A DNA stretch of 64,000 nt from an uncultured Nitrososphaeraceae archaeon (lineage in GTDB: Archaea; Thermoproteota; Nitrososphaeria; Nitrososphaerales; Nitrososphaeraceae). Within the stretch, counting starts at the first letter, position 1, and each line of letters opens with the position of its first letter. The position numbers and the translations under genes were made by a program. Under the pieces are notes generated by a model, which was not told the origin of the DNA, did no database searches, and saw only the letters and a program-made list of their open reading frames with translations. The stretch is taken from assembly GCA_963765895.1 (NCBI GenBank), contig CAVXZB010000059.1, positions 1 to 64,000 of the forward strand. The letters run 5' to 3'. Shown here piece after piece: positions 10,954 to 42,159 of this stretch.

Positions 10954-11154
10954 CTACTGTCCGTCATGATTATTCGGAATTCCTATATCATCACAGGGTA
11001 GTATATGAAATCTAGTCTCATCTTGAGGCAGATATTTGTCTGAGCAATGCTCTTTTTCGCTTTCGTTTGCGTACACTGTGTTACCATGTGTCATAACGCC
11101 CAACAGTACCAAGCCTGCGAGGATAACCACACTTACCGTGACGATTTTGTTCAT
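10954..11154 (-). CDS. small secreted hypothetical protein
   Basis: MNKIVTVSVVILAGLVLLG...VYA signal peptide followed by a short two-Cys mature peptide. Confidence 0.5.
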   Translation of the reverse strand: MNKIVTVSVVILAGLVLLGVMTHGNTVYANESEKEHCSDKYLPQDETRFHILPCDDIGIPNNHDGQ

Positions 11155-11382: not shown

Positions 11383-12474
11383 TTAATATGATTTGAGCGA
11401 AGCCATATCAATAGAAAAGCGATACTTTACATCCGTATGAGAAAGTCTCTCATAAGCCTCGTTGACCTTCTCGATTGGAATAACTTCCACATCAGCGGTG
11501 ATGTTATTTTTGTCGCAAAAGTCAAGCATCTCCTGTGTTTCGGCAATACCCCCGATGTTCGAGCCTGAGAGGCTGCGACGCTTCAATATAAGACTAAAGG
11601 CCGCTACTGCATGAGGCTTGTCTGGTGCACCAACGAGAGTCTTGTTACCATCGCGGCAGAGTAATCGTAGGTATGAGTTAATATCGTGTTCGGCTGAAAC
11701 AGCATCGAGGATGAAGTCGAAGCTGCCCTTCATGCTTGCGCATCTGATCGGTATTTCGCGAAATAACCACCTCGTCTGCGCCCAGGCGAAGTGCGTCTTC
11801 TTTTTTGTTAGGCGAAGTGGTAAAGACTAGTACATGTGCTCCAAGTGCATGAGCAATCTTTATTGCCATGTGACCGAGCCCACCGAGACCTACCACACCG
11901 ACCTTTTTGCCTTTGGTAACACCCCAATGTCGCATGGACGAGTAGGTTGTAATTCCGGCGCATAAGAGAGGTGCAGCTCCAGCGAGATCCAGGTTAGAAG
12001 GAACCCGTAGGACAAAATGATCTTTGACTACAATACTATCTGAATAGCCGCCATAGGTTACGCCTCCAAGGTGCTCATCTGGAGAGTTGTAGGTGAGTGT
12101 TATATGCGGACAATACTGCTCAAAACCAGCCTGACACTCTGGACAGCTACCGTCGGAGTCAACTAAGCAGCCAACTGCAGCAATATCACCGGGCTTGAAC
12201 TTGGTGACCGCGGAACCGACCTTGGTGACACGGCCAACGATCTCATGTCCAGGAACGCATGGATAGACAATTGGTATCGCACTCCACTCGTTACGAACGG
12301 TGTGAAGGCAGAGTGGCAGATACCACAGAAAAGAATTTCGATCTGAACATCATGTTCGCCCGGATCGCGTCGTGGGATGGTGATTGGGGCAAGTGGCGAT
12401 TTAGCATTCGCAGCAGCATAAGCCTTTGCTTTATAGTGACCACGTTCTTCAGAGCTAAATTGCGTGGTTGTCAT
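11383..12474 (-). pseudogene. Zn-dependent NAD(P) alcohol dehydrogenase (cinnamyl-ADH/YahK-like), frameshifted
   Basis: CGICHS, GHE, VGCLVDS, GVVGLGGLGH, DVKYRFSID distributed over at least three frames (shifts near 12310 and 11735). Confidence 0.88.
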
Positions 12475-12780
12475 GACAGTCTCTGCGATATGGTATAAAG
12501 CCATTTATGAACAAGCGGTCTGGGTAGAAGACGGTAATCGCAGCAATGAATCATCAATATTACTGTATTACAAAGCGAAAATTAGAAGTGTAATCTATAA
12601 TCCATATTTGTCATAACTATTGCCATTGTCGGCAAGTACTACGTGGTTATATAAAGGCAAAGAGTGGCGCTTAGTATGTCTAAACACAGCACTGAGTATT
12701 TACAAGACTAGATAGATATTTTGGCTGTATATGACGGAATATATTTCCGGGAATTCGAAAAATATATTTGAAAGAGGAAT

Positions 12781-13472
12781 ATGAAGGTGAATATGAAAAA
12801 CAGGTCATACATGATAATATTTCCTTTGGCTCTCATAATTTTGTTTAGTACGTCCATGGTTGCCTATGGCATTTCGTCTACACCACAACTGTATCTCAAG
12901 GATTCTTCACCTTATGGTACACCTTATGCGGATTGGATAAAGAAGTGGTGGCAATGGAATGTCTCAGTGCCTAAAACAGAACATCTGCAAACTAATCCAA
13001 AAACGGTTTGTGCTACAAAGGTATCTGGGCAAGTATCTTTCTAGTTCAAAACTTACAAGGCACTTCACACTACTCGTGTACAATTCCTGCCAAGAATGCT
13101 ATTATGGATCCCATATCGACTGGTTCGTGCACTTCGATAGAAGCGCATTCCTCTAAACCAGCTGACTTAATTAATTGTGCTACAATAGGGGACCAGCATC
13201 TCACATTCAAAGCGACACTGGATGGAGTACCGCTCAATAATCTGGAGAATAACTATGCCATGACTAAGATCTTCGATATGACTGTACCTAATGGTAATTT
13301 CGAACTTCTTAAAGGTGGCACGTACCCGACTGGCGCAGGTGGTTACTTTATCTTTCTAAAACCTCTTCCAGTCGGTGAACACAACTTGCATGTGACAGCA
13401 AGGGTCGTCAATCCTACTGATCCCTCATTTAACTTTGACTATGATACATCATATGATCTAAGAGTTCGATAG
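12781..13472 (+). pseudogene. secreted hypothetical protein, frameshifted near 13040
   Basis: Signal peptide, PYGTPYADWIKKWWQW, then CTIPAK...GYFIFLKPLPVGEHNL in the next frame. Confidence 0.7.
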
Positions 13473-17649: not shown

Positions 17650-18882
17650 ATGATCAACCGAGCAAAATCATTTAAGAGAAGAACTTTAGTGACTGTGGTT
17701 ATTGCATCGTTGGCCAGCTCCTTCGATAACCAAAGATCCAAAGCTGAAAGTTGAGACTCTAGCTAAGGGTCTTTCCTCCCTACTAGCATGGCATTTATTG
17801 ATACTAGCAACATACTGGTCTTAGAGAAAGGTGGGCAAGTACGTCTCGTGTCAAATGGAGTACTAGAGGATAAGCCAGTCTTGCAAGTATCTGTTGATAC
17901 AGAAAGTGAACGTGGTCTGCTTGGAATTGCTATTATGAATAGTACAAAGACTAATGCTGCTAATAACAGCAAGTTTGTATATCTGTACTATACTGAATCG
18001 AAAGGTGGAGATCTTAGAAATAGAATTTACAGATATGAATGGAATGGACAAAACCAAAATCTTGTCAACCCTACCCTGATATTAGACCTTCCAGCTCTTC
18101 CAGGTCCTAATCATGATGGAGGGAAACTAGTTATTGGTCCAGACCATTACCTTTATGCAGTAATAGGAGACCTTAACCATAGAGGTAAGCTTCAGAATAT
18201 TAACGATGGACCTGATCCTGATGATACTTCAGTTATACTCAGAATTAATCTTAACGATGGTTCAGCTGTCAAGGACAATCCATTCATAAATGACGCTAAT
18301 ATTGCAATACACAAATACTATGCCTATGGAATACGAAATAGCTTTGGAATTACGTTTGATCCCATAACTGGTAATTTGTGCAGACAGAAAATGGGCCTGA
18401 TGTATATGATGAAATTAATGTAGTAAAACCAGCCTTCAATAGTGGGTGGACCCAAGTTATGGGACCTCTTTCAAGAAATACAGGTTTTAAGGTGGGGCCA
18501 ATTGGTTAATTTTCCACGCTCTCATTATGCGGATCCTGTATTTAGCTGGAAAAATCCTGTTGCAGTTACAGATATAGAATTTATGAAATCATCAGTGCTG
18601 GGAGAGAAATACAAAAATAATATTTTTGTTGGTGATTATAATAATGGTAATTTATATTATTTTGTAGTCAACAGTACTAGAACAGGAATAAATCTTGATA
18701 TCAACCAAAAGAAGATTGGATTGTCTGGTTTGGTAGTAAACAATGATAACCAACAATCTGCAGTAACATTTGGTACTGGTTTTGGTAGAATTAGTGATAT
18801 AAAGATCGGACCAACAGATGGCTTTCTATATGTTTTATCAATCAATGATGGAATAATATACAAAGTTGTACCAAGTCTGTAA
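17650..18882 (+). pseudogene. PQQ-dependent sugar (glucose/sorbosone) dehydrogenase, frameshifted
   Basis: ERGLLGIA, PGPNHDGG, YAYGIRNSFG, GFGRISDI; split over ORFs 17788-18423 and 18442-18882; 5' end degraded. Confidence 0.85.
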
Positions 18883-19009
18883 TAAGCTGCAAGGTGAGTT
18901 GATACTTTTTCCAATAGTATTAGCAGTAGTTAACTAGCGCAGAGCAGCATTCAGATATACCCGGCAAGATACGCGAAACCTATAACTGACATATCTAGCA
19001 TAGAATGTC

Positions 19010-19364
19010 ATGTCTAAAGCCGATCTTCACCATAGACTGGGTAGAGCAAATGAGATAACATTCAACGTCAAAGGTAGAAAATCCGGCAGAGATATCCCGA
19101 GGCCAGTCTGGTTCGTGCATGAGGATAACACTCTGTATTTGCTTCCAGTTCAGGGCTCTGAAACCAACCGGTATAAGAACATACTAGTCGATCCAACATT
19201 GAAGATTTCGCTAAATGGCGTAGAGACACCTGCAAGAGGTAAACCAATAACAAATAGTAGGTACTGTTAACGATATTGTGAGGAAATTCAAATCCAAATA
19301 TGGCGAAGGGGAGGTAAAAAAGTATTATACGAAGTTTGATGTAGCAGCTGAAGTCATCCTCTGA
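19010..19364 (+). pseudogene. deazaflavin (F420)-dependent nitroreductase/quinone reductase-like protein, frameshifted
   Basis: GRKSGRDIPRPVWFV...TNRYKNI; tail ...FKSKYGEGEVKKYYTKFDVAAEVIL* in another frame. Confidence 0.7.
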
Positions 19365-19614
19365 CAGATCTTCCCAGGAACTTACGTAGGCAAGGAATTA
19401 ATTAATTTATTCAGTCATGCAAAATATACAGAAAGATGAATGAGACTGGTTTTTAACATTCACTAGCATCTTTAAAACTATAAAACTTCAATGCTATTCT
19501 AAAAGAGGGGTAAATGCAATAATAATAATAATAATAATGATCAAGAATGGATTTATCATAGAGAAGAATAGAAAATAGGAGAATCAGGATATAGGCTCCA
19601 GTGTTTGATCAAAA

Positions 19615-20125
19615 GTGCCCGACAGGACAGTTACTAGATCCTTCAGGATCAATGAAAGCGCTTTCCTAGCTCTTGAGGAAGAGGCTAAGAAACGCAACAT
19701 TAGCCTCAACACTCTTGTGAACCAACTCTTTATGTCCTACGCAAACTTTGATCGGTACTTCCAAAGGCTTGGCATGCTGAAAATATCCAAAGTAACATTC
19801 AGGAAGATTTTGAAAGCTGCCCCGGCTAACGAAATCGTTAAGCTGGCAAGAGATGTAGCTCAAAATAGCTCGAGGATAATTATTCCTGCAAGATACGGGA
19901 CACTGTCACTCACAAGCGCTTTAGAGTATCTCAACAATCTTGCAGATTACGCCTATTTTGTCGAGCGTAGTGAAGTTGTTTCACCCGGAGGAAAACGAGT
20001 AATTACGTTAATCCACAGTTACTGGAAAAGGGGGGTTAATCTTTGTCAAAGCTTACACGAAAGCTCCCTTTGAACAGATTAATAGGAAACCGAAATTAAA
20101 TTCGACAGAATAAGGCATCATCTAA
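19615..20125 (+). pseudogene. ribbon-helix-helix N-terminal domain protein, 3' end disrupted
   Basis: TVTRSFRINE...LEEEAKKRNISLNTLVNQL RHH pattern; frameshift near 20030 and a stop near 20112. Confidence 0.65.
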
Positions 20126-20364
20126 AGGTAGCTGTTCAAACTGCACCCGCTATCAAAGACAAATCGCCGGACTAAAAAGGGCCCTCATAAAAGCTGACGA
20201 CAAGAACGTGCGCCACACTATGCAATATGAGGCCACGATAAACCGGTCAAAGGCTGAACACCATTCACAAAAGTCAAAAAGGGCTGGTGTTGGAACAGGT
20301 TGGGCAACCCGAGGCCAACACCGCCCGAAGCATATCAACTTCCATGAACTGGTGAAGAACAAGG

Positions 20365-20906
20365 ATGATGATCGCTAGAGGTACATTATCAGAAGATGAA
20401 AATAAACGTTTTCAAGACAAGGAAACTAATTCTAGCCTTAGTAACAAATCAATTACAAATCAATTACTTAGATTACCAGAAGAAGAATTCTGTAGGCTAG
20501 TTGCAATCCGTCTGAATACGCCACTATCAAAAGCCGATCAAAAAGAGTTTGGAGAGGAACCTAGAGAATATTGGTCATTGAACTATCTAGTAGAGGAGAT
20601 CTTCCTTAAAATTGCCCAATTGAGGATTTTAGTTACTCATAACGGTAAGCAAGTTAGCATTTACAAATACTATAATCAGGCTCTACGCCTAAAAAGTGGA
20701 TTCCCATAGCAAAGGCACCAGTTGAATTTGTCATCAACGCATCAGATCTAACTTTAAGGATTTTGGTAGAACTCAAAGCATTAGGTCATGAAGAATCACA
20801 ACAAGTGCTAAAATTAGCGGTCATAAAAATTTTCGAAAATATTGTTGGTCCCAGATATGCTCATGGTAGTATTATTCGAAATCTAAGTGCGAGGTTGGAT
20901 AAATAA
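20365..20906 (+). pseudogene. hypothetical protein upstream of MCM, frameshifted near 20705
   Basis: ORF 20365-20709 continues as KAPVEFVINASDLTLRIL...LSARLDK* ending at 20906, immediately before the ATG at 20908. Confidence 0.5.
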
Positions 20907-20907
20907 C

Positions 20908-23123
20908 ATGGCCTCAACAGCCAGTCACATTGTACTCTGTCTCTGAAGCAAAGAAGATTAAGTCTGGGCAGATAACGGTTACTGGAATCATAAGCTCACT
21001 TTCTACTCAATACTGGGTAATATCTAATTCAAAGTGGGAATGCCCTAATTGTAACCAAGTCGGTAGCCAGAATTATATACCACCTCGTATGCTCCCACCA
21101 AGACGCCTGGACAATATATCAAGTACCGAATTAAAGTGCTTTGAATGTCACAGCACCGCATTTACTGTTAGCCATGAATACCATACAGCCAAGACTATTC
21201 AAGTCATTGATGCTGATAATAACCATAATGAAAACTATGATTCACTTGAGGTAGTGTTATATGATGAATCATGGAGTCATGCATTTGCCGGCGAAATTGT
21301 AGATATAACAGGTGATCTACATGTCCAGCCAAAGACACAAAGCGTAATCAATAGCAATGGCAAGAAACTTGTCAGTATTTTACATAGTAGTAGACTTAAC
21401 TCAAAACATAGAGAAAAGATCATAATCACCCATAAAGATATTGAAATCTTTAAGAGACACAAGGCAATATGTGAAAAGGCTTACCAAAGTGAACTTGAAA
21501 CCATAGAGCGTTATCCAGAGATAGCAAAAAAGATCAAACCAATGCGATATATCGATAGAGTTGTTGCAATGGTTGCACCTAATGTAATAGGACATAACGA
21601 CAAAAAATTGGGACTACTAAGATCTATAGTTGGAGCAAGATCAGATCACGGAAATGATAATGGAAGAAGGGGAAGAATAAATACACTGCTCGTAGGCGAA
21701 CCAGGGACAGCAAAGAGTACATTAGCAAAAGAGGCTACTCGTTTATTACCTAATTCCAGATATGTAACAGCTCAACATGCTAGTGGCAAAAGCCTCATTG
21801 CTATTGTCGATAAAGAAAATGATAGTCTAGTATGTAGGTATGGAGTAGTTGTACTTGCTAAGGGCGCCGTTTGTGCAATAAATGAGATAGGCGCTATGAA
21901 TCCTACAGATCAACAATTTTTGCTAGATATTGCTGAGGAAGGAAGATGTACCGTAGATAAATACGGCACCCATTTCGAGATCGACGCACCCACAACCATC
22001 ATAGCGACAGCAAATCCACTTAATCAAACTTGGAGCAAGGGCTATAACATATCAAAAGACGAGATACCAATACTCAAACCTCTTCTTGATAGATGTGATC
22101 AAGTTTATGGATTCATGGATTTTCAATCTGAAAATGAAATCAATGAATTCACAGTACCAGAAAACTAGGGTTAGAAACCGTCCATCACATAACTATAATT
22201 TCCTAAGGAAATTACTTGTTTATACTAAAACCCTCGAGCCTGTAGTGACAGACGATGTAGGAGCTAGACTAAACAATTTTTGGGAGAAGGGTAAAATTCA
22301 GGGAGCAGTTACCACTAGGGCATACGATTCAATATTTAGGATCGCAGAAGCGCAAGCAAGACTTAACCTCAGTAACATAGTCACAGACGATATCGCAACT
22401 CAGACAATGAATTGGATCGGCCTAATGATATCACAATACGGTAAAGTTGTAGTAACAATCCGAAGCCCGCGCGATGCCGCTTATAATGCATTCGTGGACA
22501 TCTTAAAACATACTAGTATTGGCATAACTATCACAGAGCTTTGTGCTAGGGTATGCAAGGAAAATAGACATATAGCTGAATACTTGGGCGAGAAGTGGAA
22601 TATTGAACATAATCATAAGCTAAGAGCTGTAACTGACATGCTCCTAAACCACGGAAAAATAAAATTAGTAAATGCCAAGCCAATGGTACTACAATACATC
22701 GATAAGGAAATATCATCTGACAAATCTGACGTATCTGACACAACTATCAAGGCCAGTCAAAATAATGTGGCACTGTCCACAACTGACGCATCTGACGTAT
22801 CTGACACGATATCGGTTAACATGAAAAAGTTGCCCGCATTCATGACTGAACAAAATAATCTGCAACCTGACATATCTAATCTATCTGACACTGCCCAGAC
22901 TAACACCAATAAATCGGCCAATGTTATGACTGAACAAAATAATCAGCTATCTGACATATCTGACATATCTGACACATTCGGAGACCAGCAGATTATCAAG
23001 GAACAAGAATCGTGTAATATCTATAGACTCGGACACTCAGATACTTGGGCTTGCGAAAATTGCAGACAAAAAGGAGATGTACATCACATGAGAGGACATC
23101 TGTGTAGTGGAGATGCAAAATAA
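20908..23123 (+). pseudogene. mcm: MCM-family replicative helicase of mobile-element type, frameshifted
   Basis: Zn ribbon CPNC...CFEC; APNVIGH; Walker A GEPGTAKS; Walker B variant AINE; ATANP; Arg finger LLDRCD; R...IAEAQARL; shifts near 20930 and 22155; C-terminal SDxSDxSD repeats and a CxxC...H...C finger. Confidence 0.85.
22715..22975 (+). repeat. four triplets of 9-bp-period ATCTGAC units in the MCM 3' end
   Basis: Triplets start at 22715, 22781, 22865 and 22949; each ends TCTGACAC. Confidence 0.92.
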
Positions 23124-23348
23124 CCAGTCATGATTCTATCTCCATTTATGAAAAGATTGTTAAATATGGTCCTGTTACCTTACAGTCTATTTAAGTAATT
23201 TAAAAAAGTATTAATCGTCATCGTACAAAGTATGAAATACGGCTTGCTAGCTTCATGATTATGTACAGTTTTGTATCATTGTTTTCTATTTGTATTCGCT
23301 CACTAGATTCAATATTCTACAATTGGTTTAAATACTTCAATCGATTAC

Positions 23349-24194
23349 ATGATGGTTCTGATTCCGCAGGAATATCTAGATCACGCTTGGATTATAATAT
23401 CGAATCCGATCATAACTGGCATAATTGGAGTCGCTATAGATCATTTTTTATTGAAACCATTTTAGAGAAAAATAGAAATAGGAAAAAAGCATTATTACAA
23501 CACTATAAGACATTAAGAGAAGATGTTCTTGATCACTGGCTTCAATATGAAGCGGAACTGTATTCACAACTAAATACGTTTCCTAAAACAACCATACCTC
23601 TATATACACAAATTTCGGAGAAACTAAGGTCGAAATACTTCAATCGGCTCCGATCACATCTGAAGATATCTTATAAAGAAATCGATGATATAATAACTGA
23701 TATCGAAGAAAGTGAATCAAAGCACAATCAGGAAGTTGCCGATTTTATTAACGGGTTGAAACAAAGAATTAGAAATACAGTTTACATAGAAAATGACTGT
23801 AGGTTAGAAGGCATATCTGAGCATCAATTCGCAACCGATGTTACACCACGCTTCGTTTTAGACCATATCATTCATTACTATATCGAGAAATTCAGCAGAC
23901 CTGATTACCAATTAGCGGTACGAAAATTGAACTCACATTATCAACTGTACAGGGCTTCTGACATGAAAGAAATTGGTAGAGGAGATCAACAAAGCATGGA
24001 ATGCCTAAAGAAAAAACTGGACGTCCAAGAACGTGATATAATAAAAGTACTAAAACGAACTTAGTGATGAAGGAAACAGACTAATTAAACGCTTTCTAGA
24101 GCTCAAATCAAAGGCGACTGACTTAGTCGTACAGATAGATGACGGTTATCTTTATGGTAAATGTGACTTCGAATCAAGACTACGATTCTTCTGA
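23349..24194 (+). pseudogene. hypothetical protein with N-terminal TM anchor, frameshifted
   Basis: MMVLIPQEYLDHAWIIISNPIITGIIGVAIDHF joins the 23255-24064 frame near 23460; a tail ...YGKCDFESRLRFF* ends at 24194. Confidence 0.55.
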
Positions 24195-24338
24195 TCCATT
24201 TTTTTAGTGTTTTGAATCATAGTTACCCATATTTTTTTCATCAACCTTGATTCCACACTTCTCAGTAGGGGTTTTCCTATTTAACCCCATATGCATGGCG
24301 GTCATAATAATTTGTGAGATTGTATAATTATATCTGAT

Positions 24339-24539
24339 GTCAGATAGGTCAGATAGCTCAGATAGAGGTGGAGAGCTGCATAAGATTAAGGACTGTCGGC
24401 CATACTAATGTCAGATGGGTCAGATACGTCAGATAGTTACAGTTCTAGGTGAATAGAGATTATCCGCTGCTAGGGGGTCAGAAACGTCATATATGTCAGA
24501 TGGGTCAGATACGTCAGATGGGTCAGATACGTCAGATAG
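24339..24539 (-). repeat. GTCAGAT 9-bp-period array (3+3+7 units), inverted relative to the MCM cluster
   Basis: Units at 24339/48/57, 24410/19/28 and 24477-24531. Confidence 0.92.
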
Positions 24540-24690
24540 TGGAGCATGCGCCCTCCTACTCATTTTTCATCAATACTGAGCTTAGAGTTGTCATTCGATC
24601 TAATGATGAAATATAAGCGAGCGATTTTAATAACACATAGAATCACGGTACTATAAAATAAGAAGAGCAATTTTATTAAAGGAATATTAA

Positions 24691-26091
24691 ATGACAGAGG
24701 AAAATTCTTCAAAGCGATCTAAGGACCACAATACTCCTGAAAAACAGAGGGCATTAGTACTCCAAGGAGGGGGAGCATTGGGTGCGTATGAAGTAGGTGT
24801 ATTGAAAGTGCTGTGTAAAAAGCTTCTTGAAAGTGGTGGAAACGACACGGAAAATGGGCCGTTATTTGATATTATTGCAGGCAGTTCCATGGGTGCAATG
24901 AACGCCGCAGTGCTTGTAAGCAATGTAGTCAACAGACATAAGAGCTGGAAAGAAGCAGTAGGAGTGCTTGAAGATTTTTGGATGGATGAAAAAAATGGTC
25001 TCTCGTCCACTCCAGATATTAACAAATGGTTGGATGACGCAAAAAAACAAAAAAACTTTAATGCTTCATCAGAGGCTGCAAGAAGATATTACTCAGTAAA
25101 ATATTACTTAGCTAAGGGAACACCAAATGTGTGTTTTAAAGATCCAGAACCAGAACGTGATGTGAAATTTGGCGATAGGGATAATAATAACAATCCGGTA
25201 CAATGGACTTGGTATATTAGCGATCCATTACAACATACTATAGAGCGATATTCAAAAGATGAAAATACTGAAAAATTGAAAATAGCTACCAGCTGGGAAC
25301 ATAGACAGCCTAGGTTACTTGTCATTAGCGTTGATGTATCTGACGGGAAGACAATAACATTTGATAGTTATCACACAAAAGATGATCTTGAAAAAGGAGT
25401 GTATGAAGGTGATGGTATTACTATAGATCATATTATGGCTAGCGGTACGATACCGCTCTTCTATAAGTTCCGGGTAATAGATGGAAGAAGTTTCTATGAT
25501 GGAGGTTTTTTAAATAATACACCATTTAGAGAACTCTTGCAGGCACATAGGGATTATTGGACTAAAGTAGCAGATAATGTCAAAGCTAAAATTCCCGATC
25601 TGGATGTGTATATAGTAAACGTGCATCCTTCTAAAAGAAATATTATTCCTAACGACCATGATGGGGTTAATGATAGATTTAATGATATAACATATTCAGA
25701 CAGGAATTCTGGCTATGATGAAATGGTAACAGATATTGTAACAGACTACAATGATTTGGAAGAAACATTGCTTGGCGCCATACAATTAATACATAAACTT
25801 ACTAATACAAATGAGGGTATGGTATTTCAAAATGGGTTTGAGCAGTTTCTAACGATTGCTGAAGAAAAAAGTAAAACACGAGAAGTTAGGCGGGAAAAAT
25901 ACAAAGATCTAATAAAAGGCAAATTCACATTAAAACAGGTAATAAGAATAGAACGTGCATCTGACGTAGATGCTATTACCGGTAAGGAAGCGGATTATTC
26001 CAGCAAAGCTACAGACTTTACTCATGATTCCATAAAGATGCTAATTGAACAAGGAGAAAAAGATGCATTGAAGATACTCGAAGGATGTTAA
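24691..26091 (+). CDS. patatin-like phospholipase
   Basis: ALVLQGGGALGAYE, GSSMG (nucleophile Ser), MASGTIP, DGG; intact 466 aa. Confidence 0.92.
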   Translation: MTEENSSKRSKDHNTPEKQRALVLQGGGALGAYEVGVLKVLCKKLLESGGNDTENGPLFDIIAGSSMGAMNAAVLVSNVVNRHKSWKEAVGVLEDFWMDEKNGLSSTPDINKWLDDAKKQKNFNASSEAARRYYSVKYYLAKGTPNVCFKDPEPERDVKFGDRDNNNNPVQWTWYISDPLQHTIERYSKDENTEKLKIATSWEHRQPRLLVISVDVSDGKTITFDSYHTKDDLEKGVYEGDGITIDHIMASGTIPLFYKFRVIDGRSFYDGGFLNNTPFRELLQAHRDYWTKVADNVKAKIPDLDVYIVNVHPSKRNIIPNDHDGVNDRFNDITYSDRNSGYDEMVTDIVTDYNDLEETLLGAIQLIHKLTNTNEGMVFQNGFEQFLTIAEEKSKTREVRREKYKDLIKGKFTLKQVIRIERASDVDAITGKEADYSSKATDFTHDSIKMLIEQGEKDALKILEGC

Positions 26092-26294
26092 TATTATAAT
26101 CAAGACAAAGGTATCTTTTCTAATACGTTAAACCAGCTCCAACACATCCTGTATAACATGAGTCCGAAAATAAGAGTCAGAGTCAAATATTCAAGCTCTG
26201 GCTCGATTCATATCTCAAAAGACTTGTTTCATATCGGAACCTGACTATAATTTCTCTCATAGCCAATCAAAATGAATCCTATTCAGGATATGAT

Positions 26295-26479
26295 GTCAGA
26301 TATGTCAGATATGTCAGATAGGTCGTTGGGCTGGATACAGATAGTTCAATGCGATGCGAGATTAAGGTTGGGGAGGTCAGATAGGTCAGATAGGTCAGAT
26401 AGTTGAAATGCAATCAAGGCGGTATGTGGTTCAAGATTCGCAGCTATAAAGTGTCAGATAGGTCAGATAGGTCAGATGG
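26295..26479 (-). repeat. GTCAGAT 9-bp-period array (3+3+3 units)
   Basis: Units at 26295/304/313, 26376/85/94 and 26453/62/71. Confidence 0.92.
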
Positions 26480-26576
26480 ACCTTAATTGTATTATAATGA
26501 CACGAACATTGCCATCATCGCTCAGGTAATAGACACGTCAGCTCGTGTGATCCTCTAATTCATATGTCATGGTAGT

Positions 26577-26900
26577 GATCCTATTGATAGGTAAAACTAT
26601 CAAGACCGGTGATTAACTTAATATCAGTCAACTATTAATTGGTGATACCTATAGATAGTAGCAATTAGTCGATGCGAATCAACATACTAATTCCGTTAAT
26701 ATGCAATAAGTTCAACACATCGGACAATATCGGATTTTTAACACATCTAGCATAATCATCCCGGAAATAACGTTATAATAAGATAGGAGCGTGCCAGGTT
26801 ATAAATATTATCAAAAAATCTGTGTCCTATGTGTAGACTGACGTCCCAGGATGGTGATAAAATTTGTGTATGCTGATATGATGAGGCGCGCCAAATATCA
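26577..26900. repeat. non-coding segment with diverged copies at 34009-34055 and about 35450-35720
   Basis: GATCCTATTGATAGGTAAAA identical at 26577 and 34009; CTATAGATAGTAGCARTTAG, GGACAATRTCGGATT, AATCATMCCGGAAA, GCGTGCCAGRTTATAAATA and GAGGCGCGC shared in the same order with 35470-35717. Confidence 0.8.
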
Positions 26901-26914
26901 CGTAAAACTGGGTA

Positions 26915-27050
26915 TCATGGATTTGCAATTTGCTCGCTTTTGTATCAACACCTGGCTGAAAGCCTGTTATTGTGTCTGTCCCAGGTCCACAATTAAACTA
27001 GTCGCGTCCTGCGCCTCCAGTCAGAATATCGTTACCATCGCCAGCTGGAT
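26915..27050 (-). pseudogene. C-terminal remnant of RTX-type Ca-binding protein
   Basis: Manual translation: GDGNDILTGGAGRD*FNCGPGTDTITGFQPGVDTKRANC. Confidence 0.7.
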
Positions 27051-27471
27051 CTAATAGATATAGTTTTTGAAAAATTGATCCGCAGTATAGACGCGGTCAT
27101 GATGACTAACAGGTATATCAGGAGAAGCAATGACTACTCAGAGTCTTGGCCTATCCCCCTCGTAGATGGGGAGATAAAAGGAATTAGTAAGACTAAGCAA
27201 TACCATGACCGCGGTGATAATCAATATAGCGAAGGAAAAAATTTGCAAATTAATGGTCCTAAAATCTAGAGTATGTATAATTAGTTTTTTATAGGCAAAT
27301 TTCACCCTCCTGCCCACCTAAGATAGTCAAGTGTGTCGGTTTAGAAATGGTCCCCTTTCATAGTAGGCCTAATACTGTTTTTGGTGAAAAATAGGTAAAA
27401 TATAATGAATAAATATTCAGATTTTTCTTACATAATACCTATTTTAAGGCCATTAGTAGTGTATACAAATA

Positions 27472-28420
27472 ATGGACAAAATTAATTTACTTGTCAAAAC
27501 TCTCTTGATAACCACTCCTCTCAGTTCCAATTGTAGCAGTAACAGTAATCAGCAACTCGAATAATTATAAGCAAATGCGTCTACTAATACTACAGAAACA
27601 CTATCTTCGCTACCATTATCAATTCCATCTCTTCCATCTGCTTCTTTAGTAAATGAAACGGTTACTTCCTCTAATAATAATTCGTTTGTATATGCAAGTC
27701 CAACTGTTTTAAATTTAAGAGTCTTTGGATAGAGTGGATAGGTGGGTTATAAAGTTCCACTATATAATTTGGTACACGTCCTGCTCCCTTATGCTATGGC
27801 CTTCAGCTAAATGAACTCCTAAAGCATCCTATGAACGAAACTCAAAGAGATCAGTTGTTAAAACATTTCTTTTACAAAAAACTTGGTATACGCAGCAAAC
27901 TTTACTAAATATTTTAATGGCAAAAATTAGCACACCAACTGAGACTAAAATCACAGGCCCAACAGGTCCAGGAGTTATTTGCAAATTCCCCTACCGCTCA
28001 GAAACAAACACTACTGCAAATAATTGTAATCCTTCACTATGGAACTTTATGCCACTACCCGGGCCACCAAGGTTAGATAATGCTCAACCCATGTGTCACG
28101 GTAGCAGGAAATGTATCTGTGGTACAGTTTCCAGCCGATGGAGATGCAGTTATGGCCTTAACATTGGATAAACCATATAGCAATATGGTTACGGTAGGAG
28201 AAATTTCAATGACAAAATGAAAGGAGGGATATGGGTAGAATTAATATATTAGAAAAGCCAATGAATTTAACCACAGTTGAACCCTTCAAAATAGGATCTT
28301 GTAAAGGCTATAATGGACCGGTATTTAATCTTCCTAAAGTGGGAGACCACTTGACGGTAACAGGTAAATACATAATTGATGTGCGCCGCGAAGGCGGTCA
28401 TGCTAATCCACCTACCCTCG
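27472..28420 (+). pseudogene. secreted hypothetical protein, paralogue of 29382-30168, multiply frameshifted
   Basis: CNPSLWNF...PPRL...CVTVAG...ADGDAV...GGIWVEL...PKVGDHLTVTGKYIID...GGHA across frames; boundaries approximate. Confidence 0.6.
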
Positions 28421-28559
28421 AGGGTAGATATGGATGTCCATCCCCGCATAATCGTGGTGACGTGTGGCGAGCCTTGTAATAGAATTTACTTAAAGTCTTA
28501 AACCTAACGTTAAGTCAATGCTGACCAGAGAGAATTTGAACCAATAAAAATTATTTTTT

Positions 28560-28860
28560 CTCCTTTTCGCAACATTTTACATTCGGACACTTTAACAATC
28601 AATTCATTTATCATGTTTGCTCCTGCAATACTAAGAGCATGAATAATGATTCTGCTGAATGGGGTTCGCCTTTGGAGCTAACCGTTCTAATAGTACTTAT
28701 TTGTCCACATTGAGAGAGCATCTTATTAAATAGAAGTGCATTTTCTTTCCTTAGAGCATCTGTAAAGCCATTCCATGTTTCGATCTCTTTAGCTAAGATA
28801 TGGACATTGCCATTTTCATTTTGTTCATCTTTGGGACACTTCCATTATCATCTTGAATAG
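28560..28860 (-). pseudogene. small helical hypothetical protein (EIETWNGFTDALR...SKGEP...ESLFMLLVLQEQ)
   Basis: Manual translation; about 95 codons with frameshifts; not in the ORF track. Confidence 0.5.
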
Positions 28861-29170
28861 TTTACATTCTCTTTAATAATAGATCGCAAGGGGAGAGGCG
28901 AATGAGTTTGTATATTCATTGAAATATACTTATGTGCTGCTTTCATGAACGTGATCTCAATTTGGTCAGGCTTAGCACTTAGGTCTAACCGAAGAGAAGA
29001 CGGCGAGGACGCCTTGCTATAGGTAGGCGCAAGTATTAACGTCTAATCATATGTCTTGAATAGTAGCGATCACTGAAGTTGGTTATCAAGTAATCTTGTT
29101 CAGCGATTATTATTTCTAGACTCAATCAACTTTAATACAACCAGATCTGATTAATAATTAACAGGATAAA

Positions 29171-29377
29171 ATGACATACTCCTTACATAAGAATACTGAA
29201 ACTATAATTGAGTTATCTGATGATTTTGTCAATCGTCTGATTAAAGATTTGGAGGAACTAGCAAATAGTAAGAAACTTTCGGATACGCATGAAAGAGCAG
29301 ACAAAATATTATTGGAATTTGCCCCTGATGAAATTAAGGATGCTTGGAAAAAGGTAACAAAAGTGAAGATAGAATAA
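29171..29377 (+). CDS. small hypothetical protein
   Basis: 68-aa charged helical ORF with ATG start, immediately followed by the next gene. Confidence 0.5.
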   Translation: MTYSLHKNTETIIELSDDFVNRLIKDLEELANSKKLSDTHERADKILLEFAPDEIKDAWKKVTKVKIE

Positions 29378-29381
29378 ACCT

Positions 29382-30168
29382 ATGACAACCATGAGGGGAT
29401 GCATAATAATCTCATTTTTGTTTGCCTCTTTAGTCATTGTTCTCGTTGCTATCCCTGACGTTTTATTTCCTCAAAATAGTTGAGGCAAGATGTCCAAATG
29501 GTTATCACAAAAGTCCGAATGGCGATTGTGAACTGGTGGTTTCTCATGAAGGAAAGTGGCCTAGATGTCCAAATGGTTTCCATCGTAGTCCAGATGGAGA
29601 TTGTGAGAGAGTCGCCGATAATAATAGTAATGATGGCAACAATAAATAATGAGGACCAACTAAGCGACATTCCTTCCAATAACGGCAAAGATACAACTAG
29701 CAATAGATTCTCATCATCTGGTACCTCAGCCTCTATTCCACTATCACCATCAATTGTAACAGCCTCCGAATCAACACCAGGAAAATGTGACGACTCACTT
29801 TGGAATCATGTATATAATCCAAGCAGGTTGCAGATAGTTGATAAATGCATAACTGTAACTGGTATTATCGACAGTATCAGATCTGAACAAGACGGTGATT
29901 TGCATATACGATTAAAGCTTGATCCTTCGCATTCTCATCTAGTAAACCAGGCTAATGAGAAAACCAATTTGGAGATCTAGTCCTAGAGCCTATTTGTATA
30001 GGAAAAGTAACCCAAGCGAGTGCAATTTCTGCTTGTCAGAATTTCCATCAAGGCATTGATATTCCACCAGTAGGTAGCCACATTCAAGTTATTGGATCCT
30101 ATGTATTAGATAAGGAACATGGTGAATGGGCAGAAATACATCCTATTACAACTATAGCAAAGGAGTAA
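29382..30168 (+). pseudogene. secreted protein with two CPNGxHxSPxGDCE repeats and a C-terminal DGDLH...EIHP domain, three frameshifts
   Basis: Signal peptide from ATG 29382; repeats in ORF 29437-29649; SLWNHVYNPSRL...DGDLHIRL in 29480-29980; DLVLEPIC...DKEHGEWAEIHP to stop 30168. Confidence 0.7.
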
Positions 30169-31796: not shown

Positions 31797-33331
31797 ATGA
31801 ATTCCAGTATCAACAGAGCATTAATATTTCAAGGAGGCGGTTCGCTTGGTGCATACGAAGCGGGTGCCTATAAAGCTATTAATGAAGAACTTTCAGCATA
31901 CTTTAGATCAGTAGGCAGAGGAAACGAGCCAATATTTCATATCGTATCCGGAACGTCAATAGGCGCAATAAATGCTCCTTTACTAGTAAGCTATGTAAAG
32001 GAAAATAAAACATGGGAAGGATCAGGCGAAAGGCTTGTCGAGTTTTGGGAATATCTGTCTACTCAGTCGTCTGTTGAAAACATACCATACTTTACAAACT
32101 ATTGGGATTCTTGGCGTAGATTAGATAGACGAATTGCTTCAGGAGAATCTGCCAGAAGATACTTTAGCACTAAGGAATTTATTTTTAGAGGAGTTCCCCA
32201 TGTGTTTATACCAAAGACACCCTTGCCAGACAATAGATTTTTTGATCCTTCAAATACGTGGTATGTCTATGACAATAGACCATTAAAAGAAAGCTTGGAA
32301 AAGTTTGCCAAGTTTCCTATTTCCACAAGCTTCGAGAATAATGAACCAAGACTCTTGCTAGTTGCTGTGGATGTACAAGAGGCTACTCCTGTGGTTTTCG
32401 ATAGCTACGAAAAAGAGGATGGAACAAGGAAGTCTGAATATGGCAAATATGGTAGAGTTAAATTTATAGATTCAGCGAAGAATCAGAATGAGAATCAGGA
32501 GAAAGAGGCATTTGAGCACGTTATAAGATACGATGATGGCATAAAGTCAGATTTCGTTTTGGCCAGCTGTTCAGTTCCAGTTAATTATGACTATACTAGG
32601 ATAAATGTGGAAACCCGAAACCTGGCCTTGGGAGAAGGACGAGACGAGAAAAATGTAGCCATGGAGATTAATAATCGGCCTCATCAAATGATGAAAGTAA
32701 TAGCGACTTACGCATCTTCTGGGACGGTGGACTATTAGCTAATACACCTCTAAGACAGACCTACCTTGCTCACAAGCATTATTGGCAGCGAGTTAGAAAA
32801 TTAGAAGATAATATACCAAGTCTCAAATTTGGTATAATAAATCTCCATCCGATTAAACAAGAATATCCTTCTTATGATTATGATGGCGTTATTGACAGGA
32901 AGAACGATATCATATACCATGATAGAACAGAATTTGATGAATATGTTGCAGTTCTTATATCTGATTATGCAACACTCGCAGACCAGCTAATTAAATTAGC
33001 CGAAGGGAATGGTATGAGTAAAGAAGCACTCCAAACAATTTTGAATAGAAAAGCTAAGGCTACTTTTTTAGCCACGGGCAAGCATGGGAGATATATTGAT
33101 TTAGTAAAGGGTAGAGTAGATATTGATTTTGTTGCTCGCTTGGAACGAAAGAACGACAGTCATACTATTTCAAATAAGACATTTGACTTTTCAAAAACTA
33201 CGGTCCGACAGCTAATTCAAGACGGATATGACGAGAGTAAGGAACAGATGAAAGCAATAGTTGCTAGTTTAAGAGAGGGAATTGTCTGGCACATAGTCAC
33301 TTTTCAGAATCTAAAATTCCTGTTTTGTTGA
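31797..33331 (+). pseudogene. patatin-like phospholipase, frameshifted near 32680
   Basis: ALIFQGGGSLGAYE, GTSIG, LASCSVP; FWDGGLLANTP lies in the shifted frame; C-terminal FDFSKTTVRQLIQDGY. Confidence 0.88.
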
Positions 33332-40901: not shown

Positions 40902-42159
40902 TTACCGCGCGCCTACATCCTGTCTCCTTTCTATCTCCTGTAATCTAGATGATAAAGACACAAGTTGATCGGATAGTTGAGATATAGCATCATCCTTTAC
41001 TTTATCACGCTGTCTTAATGACTGATTTAATTCCTCTAATTCCTCTACCTTTGTCTGTATGTCTGCGCCCTGCCTTTGTAGTTGATGGACATTAAGGAAT
41101 GTTAGATAAGACTCAATTTTACGGAATATTTCAGCTTTTTCTGAATCCTTTTTGCGCCAGTATGTAGAACCAGAATGTCCTATGAAATACTCAGAGTAAT
41201 CGGCGTAACCAAGATCGGAGATCGTGGTCTTTACAAACCTTCTAAATGAATGAAGAGTAATTTGTCTTCGTCTGTTACCATCCTCTCTAGCACCTTTGCC
41301 CATTCTATCTAAGGTTTTTGCAAAAGATTTAACTAAATCCTGATATAGTGAAAGAGTCTTCGTAATGGCCTTGTTTTGGTAAACCGCAAACACTAGGTCA
41401 GAATCATCTTTGATGGGTGTTCGATATTCTGTTACTGTTTTATTTTTTGATGTTGTATTATGTTGATCATTATAAGATACCCTTCTTGTTCGATATTTAT
41501 AGTCTATCCACAACTTTAGTTGGTGTGCCGTTTCGTTAGTTAAAAATGCAGTTCTATCTGTCCTTGTTTTAGTATATTCACCTCTTACAGAAAACCTCGT
41601 AGGTACTGAACCTTCTAGATCAAAATCCTTGATACGGAGAGATAGAGCCTCCTGTGCTCGCATTCCAGTCGAAGCTAGCGAGCATTACATATGTTTTTAG
41701 TCTAATATCTGAGCAGGCGTTTAATATGTCGGTAATATCTTCTTTGGATAGTGCTTCTTTATTTTTTCTAATTGATTTCGGTAGTTTTACCTTTAGTTCA
41801 AACTTCCTTGGGCTAATATCTACATCGTGATATTCCAGAAAATTTTTGACAGTTATAATGCGCTGTTTCATTGTATCAACTGAAATGCCAGTATTGCTCA
41901 AGTATGAACTATATTCGTTTAAAACATCAAAAACATCCTGATCACCTTCTTTAATTCTTCTAATGAGTTTATCTATGGCTAATGCACCAAATACAGTTGA
42001 TAGAAAATTCTCGAAGGACGCTAATCTTCTGCTATAGGCATATGCTGTTGCTTTGCTCATTATACTGACGTTTTTGATGTATTTGGAAACTGCATCGCTA
42101 TTATTGATCAGGAGCCTGATGCTCTGCTGGGTTGGTAACGACGATGAATGGTTGGCCAT
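40902..42159 (-). pseudogene. tyrosine recombinase/integrase, frameshifted near 41680
   Basis: N-terminal SAM-like region; TGMRAQEA (R), YTKT (K), LHSFRR (HxxR), IGH, TYW (Y); C-terminal coiled coil. Confidence 0.9.

Follow-up and report, generated by a model that had tools for sequence, protein, structure and literature searches.

The MCM gene and its repeat clusters

The stretch of DNA analyzed here (the window) comprises positions 1 to 64,000 of contig CAVXZB010000059.1, from an assembly of an uncultured Nitrososphaeraceae archaeon (GCA_963765895.1). It carries an MCM helicase gene of a mobile-element family, and within and downstream of this gene lie three clusters of a 7-bp word, GTCAGAT or its complement ATCTGAC, repeated with a period of 9 bp. 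An initial annotation, made from the letters alone, had described 34 such units in three clusters and had proposed selection on the motif as DNA; we reproduced all of its unit counts, coordinates, and spacings. The gene, its domains, and the clusters are as follows.

20930..23123 (+ strand), MCM helicase gene of a mobile-element family, in two open reading frames (ORFs), 20930-22168 and 22086-23123, with a +1 frame change
22467..22697 (+ strand), winged-helix domain of MCM, residues 128-204 of the second ORF, from AlphaFold2, Foldseek, and the family alignment
22715..22975 (- strand), cluster 1, four ATCTGAC triplets with 12 units, 9 of them exact, translated as (x-Ser-Asp)3 in the MCM tail
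23013..23105 (+ strand), small C-terminal zinc-ribbon-like module of MCM, residues 310-340
24339..24537 (+ strand), cluster 2, GTCAGAT arrays of 3, 3, and 7 units, 10 of them exact, intergenic and upstream of a patatin-like phospholipase gene
26295..26477 (+ strand), cluster 3, three GTCAGAT triplets, all 9 units exact, downstream of the patatin gene where ORFs are few

The identity originally given to the MCM gene was borne out by matches to the Pfam families MCM (7.3e-36), MCM_OB, and MCM_lid. A one-base frame change near position 22150, placed by comparison with intact homologs, separates its two ORFs; intact relatives are 702 to 735 amino acids (aa) long and share 62 to 70% identity over the second ORF. 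An AlphaFold2 model of this second ORF, with 24 aligned sequences as input, had block mean predicted local distance difference test (pLDDT) scores of 84 to 94 over the lid and winged helix (residues 38 to 204), with dips to 64 to 76 around residues 111 to 130. Across the winged helix itself, the mean of 10-residue blocks was 64 to 90 over residues 121 to 200 (86 to 90 from residue 131), with helices at 128 to 187 and strands at 192 to 204. Foldseek matched the folded part of the ORF to the lid plus winged-helix domain of MCM subunits in the PDB; a phmmer search against PDB sequences gave only matches with E of at least 0.2, and tblastn found nothing in plasmid and phage collections.

The winged helix is conserved throughout the family alignment. 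It is followed by a segment, residues 208 to 309, that is predicted to be disordered (block mean pLDDT of 28 to 38 over residues 211 to 310), and the cluster 1 arrays (residues about 210 to 297) lie entirely within that segment. The zinc-ribbon-like module beyond it (pLDDT of ~80, with short strands at residues 312 to 323) is present in some MCM subfamilies only. Judged by eye, the domain after the tail varies by subfamily among a Zn ribbon, a C2H2-like finger, a helical domain, and a KGFQF-type end.

A total of 35 exact GTCAGAT copies were counted on both strands of the window, compared with a mean of 9.45 (standard deviation, 3.19; maximum, 20) in 100 shuffled sequences, none of which reached 35. 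Twenty-eight of these copies fall inside the three clusters: 9 at 22715 to 22973 (- strand), 10 at 24339 to 24537 (+ strand), and 9 at 26295 to 26477 (+ strand). With degenerate units included, clusters 1, 2, and 3 hold 12, 13, and 9 units, and the triplets are spaced, start to start, by 66, 84, and 84 bp in cluster 1, 71 and 67 bp in cluster 2, and 81 and 77 bp in cluster 3. The pattern (GTCAGATNN)2GTCAGAT, with up to three mismatches allowed, matched 16 times, always within the clusters, against an expectation of 0.00. The period is specific to 9 bp: 19 exact triple sites have it in the window and the 12 related loci described below, compared with 0 to 3 at each other period from 6 to 15.

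One arm of cluster 3 (26294 to 26321) is 100% complementary to 28 nt of cluster 1 (22947 to 22974), and the spacers between triplets have no common similarity apart from the word itself. The recurrence of AGATTAAGG in the first spacers of clusters 2 and 3, to which the initial annotation had drawn attention, is real but not significant (three matches compared with 0.84 expected; 6 of 100 shuffles reach three). Internal 18-bp duplications, one of them in the seven-unit array of cluster 2, point to slippage as a way in which the arrays change. In cluster 1, the final two triplets are part of an 84-bp (28-codon) direct repeat with 77% identity (22817 to 22891 and 22901 to 22975), so spacer and triplet were duplicated there as a single module. 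An Rfam scan of positions 19000 to 29000 returned no family, and blastn of cluster 3 against plasmid and phage collections returned no match.

The repeat word in related MCM genes

A protein search recovered 23 longer homologs, 34 to 70% identical over the second MCM ORF, and 22 of the 23 carry the motif [S/T/Y/P]-D-x-[S/T/Y/P]-D, almost always in the tail. The family is large: a profile search of a representative library returned 8586 proteins at an E value of ≤0.001 and 1959 at 1e-30. Among the best 149 of the 8586 representatives beyond the first 23, many of them fragments, the double motif was found in 58 and the triple motif in 41. Some long members (P0021, P0022, and others such as P0080, P0122, and P0126), of about 1000 to 1180 aa, combine SDx tails with N-terminal extensions of 330 to 500 residues; as a guess, the extension could be a primase-like domain.

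A scan of species-representative genomes for the MCM gene yielded 12 loci (L001 to L012), all in Nitrososphaerales metagenome-assembled genomes and 23 to 59% identical. Of these 12 loci and the window (13 sequences), 9 have arrays, defined as at least two units at a 9-bp distance, at least one of them exact, and 8 have them embedded in the MCM ORF. A total of 26 of the 35 arrays lie in MCM ORF spans; of the nine outside, eight are within 3.4 kb downstream of the MCM gene, and the ninth, in L012, is separated by 6 kb from an MCM fragment.

Both orientations of the word can be translated in the same way. In the frame G|TCA|GAT, the forward word encodes Ser-Asp, a reading overlooked by the initial annotation, and its complement, A|TCT|GAC, also encodes Ser-Asp; an array phased at 9 bp is therefore read as (Ser-Asp-x)n either way. 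The MCM tails of relatives contain both orientations, both translated as Ser-Asp, and in the tail of L001 (10568 to 11227) ATCTGAC-type and GTCAGAT-type arrays alternate. Since the forward word is also Ser-Asp, codon use among the relatives is informative.

For the codon comparison, we looked in open stretches of 40 codons or more and chose units solely by peptide pattern. The window and 7 of the 12 loci contributed 68 coding units, of which 54 were Ser-Asp. Their codons were TCT GAC (22 units), TCA GAT (18), TCT GAT (13), and TCC GAT (1); the three pairs permitted by the DNA word thus cover 53 of 54 units, and AGY serine codons (AGT or AGC) were absent. In comparison, 215 background Ser-Asp dipeptides included 61 with AGY and 16 with TCT GAC (P = 1.5e-8 for the lack of AGY; P = 1.1e-11 for the excess of TCT GAC). 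In cluster 1, all nine Ser-Asp units use TCT GAC, as the initial annotation had reported, and all 12 units are preceded by A. That preceding base is the synonymous third position of the x codon, and it was A in 48 of 48 ATCTGAY-type units; the 20 forward units were preceded by G (11 units) or A (9 units).

Position 8 of the word, which was not used in unit selection, was A in 76 of 102 units. This accounts for the x residues: NTA/NCA codons in one direction give mainly V, I, L, T, or A, and ANG codons in the other give M, R, K, or T. Among the 91 x residues of the 23 homologs (V, 23; I, 21; T, 12; L, 9; R, 6; A, 5; M, 4; K, 4), 84 are those that these codons predict. The first base of the word differs among loci, and does so jointly in the two orientations: L006 has five ATCTGAT and three ATCAGAT units, L003 is mostly of that form, L009 has six ATCTGAC and two GTCAGAT units, and the window has the G form only (Spearman rho = 0.77, P = 0.04; a small sample of seven sequences). 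Free codon choice in the homologous SDxSDxSD tails, which the initial annotation had named as a refutation, was not observed, and the comparison argues that [G/A]TCAGATA is kept as DNA, in agreement with the initial annotation, and that the Ser-Asp peptide repeat follows from the DNA word.

The word also occurs outside coding sequence near the MCM gene. Clusters 2 and 3 had been placed outside any intact ORF, and this holds for the DNA between their triplets, which has stops in every frame; it does not hold throughout, as three 44-aa ORFs consisting mostly of repeats overlap the two clusters in the ORF list (24429-24563, - strand; 26272-26406, + strand; 26279-26413, - strand). On the plus strand, ORF 26272-26406 in cluster 3 reads MSDMSDMSD...RSDRSDRSDS, and 24339 to 24400 in cluster 2 reads MSDRSDSSD. 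A single indel could open a 70-aa ORF across all of cluster 3, and, should the assembly contain indel errors, a short Ser-Asp peptide ORF over that cluster retains a slight possibility.

The initial annotation had left two origins for clusters 2 and 3, as further sites or as tails of related, decayed rep genes. A tblastn search with 60 of 172 family proteins found no MCM remnant in 23124 to 30000 (best E value, 0.065, at chance or motif level). In L001, a triplet stands at 11604, 47 nt past the MCM stop codon, and a group of two exact units stands at 12814, after a duplicated copy of the MCM 3' end. The lack of an MCM remnant, spacers that share only the word, and the L001 triplet beyond the stop codon together favor further sites over decayed tails.

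In six loci (L001, three times; L003; L006; L007; L008; and L009), a minus-strand array is followed by a plus-strand array 66 to 108 bp downstream, start to start. The spacers between these opposed arrays are rich in A-tracts in L006 to L009 but not in L001 or L003. A tail with one orientation only is found in the window and among the proteins closest to it. A further array lies in the N-terminal extension of the MCM ORF in L004 (983), L006 (3677), L007 (8584), L008 (8485 and 8605), and L009 (1873). In this clade (L004 and L006 to L009), the N-terminal arrays are about 1.8 to 2 kb upstream of the tail arrays, so that arrays bracket the helicase core. The MCM tail of L001 contains, between its array sets, a long (AAT)n microsatellite encoding poly-Asn (about 11010 to 11125), which consists wholly of A and T and could be a site of unwinding.

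Neighboring genes and the genomic island

Three further features adjoin the MCM gene and the clusters.

20365..20906 (+ strand), conserved gene directly upstream of MCM, split into ORFs 20365-20709 and 20763-20906
23255..24064 (+ strand), 269-aa ORF between clusters 1 and 2, with a sub-threshold match to Pfam HAAS (19.5 bits; cut-off, 27)
24691..26091 (+ strand), patatin-like phospholipase gene (Pfam Patatin, 3.8e-26) between clusters 2 and 3

The upstream gene is homologous to ORFs of about 169 aa in L001 (8237 to 8746) and L003 (5816 to 6322), each of which abuts its MCM start, and 45 homologs were found. Its AlphaFold2 model had a mean pLDDT of 84, and the best PDB matches to the fold were MCM2-7 chains, at weak scores (E values of 0.06 to 0.3; TMq of about 0.44). 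From this model, the gene may be a detached N-terminal part (a subdomain) of MCM. A correspondence to the N-terminal extension of the L009 MCM was considered and rejected, as the two have no similarity. Neither the upstream family nor the 269-aa ORF was assigned to a Pfam, NCBIfam, or PADLOC family or gained a usable lead from the atlas, and the 269-aa ORF has no counterpart in the 12 related loci. Farther upstream of the MCM module, a 152-aa ORF (19615 to 20073) has an N terminus that looks ribbon-helix-helix (RHH)-like by eye; it had no Pfam, NCBIfam, or PADLOC match and no counterpart in the 12 loci.

The patatin-like phospholipase gene is likely cargo. It had weak matches to PADLOC phospholipase effectors and to an NCBIfam CBASS lipase, the latter far below its cut-off. 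Two isolated exact ATCTGAC words occur within it as minus-strand matches (25338 and 25959), both read A|TCT|GAC as Ser-Asp, where ~0.2 would be expected per 1.4 kb. A comparable gene in L001, for a PycC-like nucleotide cyclase, is likewise bracketed by arrays, and in both cases the bracketed cargo is defense-like.

The module is part of an island of higher G+C content, roughly 10 to 41 kb (0.38 to 0.44, compared with about 0.33 in the flanks), near the end of which lies a split tyrosine-recombinase gene (40902 to 42159). No tRNA gene was found in the window. Split genes recur in the window: a glucose/sorbosone dehydrogenase gene (17788 to 18882), the conserved upstream gene (20365 to 20906), MCM (20930 to 23123), a second patatin gene (31797 to 33328), and the integrase gene (40902 to 42159). 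Either the island is decaying into pseudogenes, or the assembly contains indel errors. Among the 27 ORFs of at least 110 aa that were scanned between 8 and 42 kb of the window, none belonged to the Orc1/Cdc6, ParA, or ParM families.

Possible origin function and comparison with known systems

The reading that we favor, to which we give about equal weight for and against, is that [G/A]TCAGATA, in 9-bp-phased groups of about three, would be a protein-binding site marking the replication origin of MCM-encoding integrative elements. Arrays of one orientation would be sites carried in the MCM stretch that codes for the disordered linker, and the opposite arrays would come later in the same tail, as in the relatives, or in downstream non-coding DNA, as for clusters 2 and 3. 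Each triplet would receive three winged-helix domains of one MCM hexamer, two hexamers would be positioned by opposed arrays, and loading would be done by the helicase itself, with no need of Orc1/Cdc6, as by the Rep helicases of staphylococcal pathogenicity islands (SaPIs). The Ser-Asp-x peptide repeat would be a by-product of the DNA word, which would be tolerable in a linker-coding segment because it is Ser-Asp in either orientation.

For the binding domain, family alignments make the winged helix a likelier candidate than the zinc module, since the domain after the tail differs among subfamilies, while the word is constant and the winged helix conserved. A wider claim is more tentative and falls somewhat short of even weight in our judgment: that a large archaeal mobile-element MCM family (the 8586 representatives) has its origin written into the helicase gene as an 8-bp iteron read as Ser-Asp either way, with 9-bp-phased triplets matching three winged helices and with loading that would need neither Orc1/Cdc6 nor another loader.

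Several observations weigh against an origin read by MCM. Four of the 13 sequences have no array (L002, L005, L010, and L011), although L011 is cut by a contig end and L010 is only 23% identical. The loci were selected through MCM homology, so the link between arrays and MCM describes that sample. The 269-aa ORF and the patatin gene intervene between the MCM stop of the window and its opposite-orientation arrays, which are 1.2 and 3.2 kb away and not directly behind it. A 60-bp scan of 22000 to 27200 detected no clear AT-rich unwinding region beside the arrays; the sole 60-bp segment with an AT content of ≥0.78 is inside the 269-aa ORF. With its MCM gene and several neighbors broken, this copy of the element may be inactive. 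Finally, nearly the same word is found in MCMs that are only 34 to 59% identical. Iterons usually change together with their initiator, and a constant word across divergent MCMs would fit a conserved host factor equally well.

It is therefore conceivable, if unlikely, that the arrays bind another factor, either a conserved host protein or an RHH- or AbrB-type regulator of the element, and act in copy-number control, transcription control, or partition rather than in helicase loading. Besides the near constancy of the word, the position of cluster 2 about 150 bp upstream of the patatin start would suit such a role. So would small ORFs near the MCM module: L001 7789 to 8025 has a weak VAPB_antitox match, and L001 8018 to 8209 and window ORF 19615 to 20073 are AbrB- and RHH-like, by eye only. 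The RHH proteins omega, ParR, and MetJ bind tandem repeats of 7 to 11 bp. However, none of these small ORFs is conserved beside MCM across the loci, the ORFs scanned in the window include no ParA or ParM, and the embedding of arrays in the MCM ORF in 8 of 13 sequences ties them to the MCM gene and not to its variable neighbors.

We regard it as quite improbable that the arrays are recombination hot spots or sites of cargo insertion or duplication. In the window, the patatin gene is bracketed by clusters 2 and 3, which have the same orientation; in L001, the PycC-like cyclase gene (11860 to 12441) is bracketed by same-orientation groups at 11604 and 12814, and the 3' end of MCM is duplicated (about 11510 to 11600 and 12630 to 12725). 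The internal 18-bp duplications, as slippage of arrays, could be counted here as well. These are two cases only, however, and recombination gives no account of arrays in both orientations in MCM tails throughout the family, whereas cargo gain at an origin region also fits the iteron reading. Arm-type integrase sites were also considered and are unlikely, as the integrase genes are 3 to 15 kb from the arrays.

Least probable, and disfavored, is a function at the peptide level only. The unit would then be an acidic or phosphorylatable [S/T/Y]-D-x repeat, DNA identity would stem from recent duplication and common descent, and clusters 2 and 3 would be what is left of decayed coding sequence. In its favor, the motif is a family hallmark (22 of 23 close homologs), the Ser-Asp frame is used in both orientations though each has a second open frame, and one or two indels would make the plus strands of clusters 2 and 3 readable as Ser-Asp peptides in an assembly with several split genes. 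Against it, AGY is missing from all 54 units, the synonymous third position that precedes the unit does not vary (48 of 48), and the G/A variant changes jointly in the two orientations. The x residues of the disordered acidic tail are predominantly hydrophobic (V, I, and L), as expected from the DNA word. In addition, the tblastn search with 60 of 172 family proteins found no MCM remnant beside clusters 2 and 3, and an L001 triplet follows a stop codon.

A self-loading MCM that reads iterons in and after its own gene would bear on how archaeal mobile elements start replication. Integrated cryptic elements of Thaumarchaeota carry an integrase together with MCM as the replication protein (Krupovic et al. 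2019, PMC6563490). In the passages of that work considered here, MCM is presumed, and only presumed, to recruit the host replisome, and neither an origin nor iterons are named for these elements. The literature passages drawn on here likewise leave undescribed how such MCMs find a start site, and full-text literature searches turned up no account of the present arrays or of an origin in archaeal elements that encode MCM. With a defined DNA word and an adjoining conserved winged helix, the question would become accessible to a simple binding and loading experiment. An MCM that does load without a separate loader would provide a minimal model of the loading process. The Ser-Asp reading, being independent of orientation, also shows a way for a gene to carry a DNA signal, and it cautions that a peptide repeat may be conserved only because a DNA motif underlies it.

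Among known systems, archaeal chromosomal origins of the origin recognition box (ORB/mini-ORB) type, which are tied to Orc1/Cdc6, find no parallel here in gene context, as no orc1/cdc6 gene was present beside the repeats among the 27 ORFs scanned. Partition centromeres of the ParR, ParG, or omega type fit no better: those ORFs include no ParA or ParM, and the small RHH-like ORFs are not conserved beside the arrays.

The SaPI Rep/ori system offers a counterpart on several points. In passages of two sources (PMC9371898; bioRxiv 10.64898/2026.10.17.759575), SaPI Rep helicases, one type of which (Rep2) is MCM-like, load themselves, with a C-terminal winged helix that binds iterons of 5 to 6 nt just downstream of rep. 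The same passages describe iterons oppositely disposed around an AT-rich region, with three or four C-terminal domains of the hexamer contacting ori. The present system resembles this in having an AAA+ hexameric helicase family with a C-terminal winged helix (here from Pfam, AlphaFold2, and Foldseek), short words clustered at or after the 3' end of the helicase gene (cluster 1 and the L001 triplet past the stop codon), and words in opposite orientations. Unlike SaPI Rep, the protein is a true MCM, with OB and lid domains, in an archaeal host. The word is 7 to 8 bp long, strictly phased at 9 bp, and grouped in threes, and many arrays are inside the ORF and translated. Kilobases separate the MCM gene of the window from its opposite arrays, and the word, for which binding is here a candidate property, is conserved across distant family members, whereas SaPI iterons are island-specific.

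Two phage systems share other features with these arrays. The lambda ori consists of four 19-bp iterons in one orientation, inside the O coding sequence at a flexible linker; the likeness lies in repeats within an initiator ORF, in a segment that codes for a disordered linker, although lambda O is not a helicase and recruits DnaB via P. The alpha protein of P4 is a bacterial primase-helicase of the SF3 type whose C-terminal DNA-binding domain reads octamer iterons, and P4 ori and crr are two opposed iteron clusters, kilobases apart, that are both needed in cis. The window likewise has opposed array clusters kilobases apart, but the P4 word is different and the P4 arrays are not translated. Iterons tied to an initiator-helicase gene are known as a kind; what would be new for the candidate iterons here is their association with an archaeal MCM, their translation in both orientations, and their sharing by a large family.

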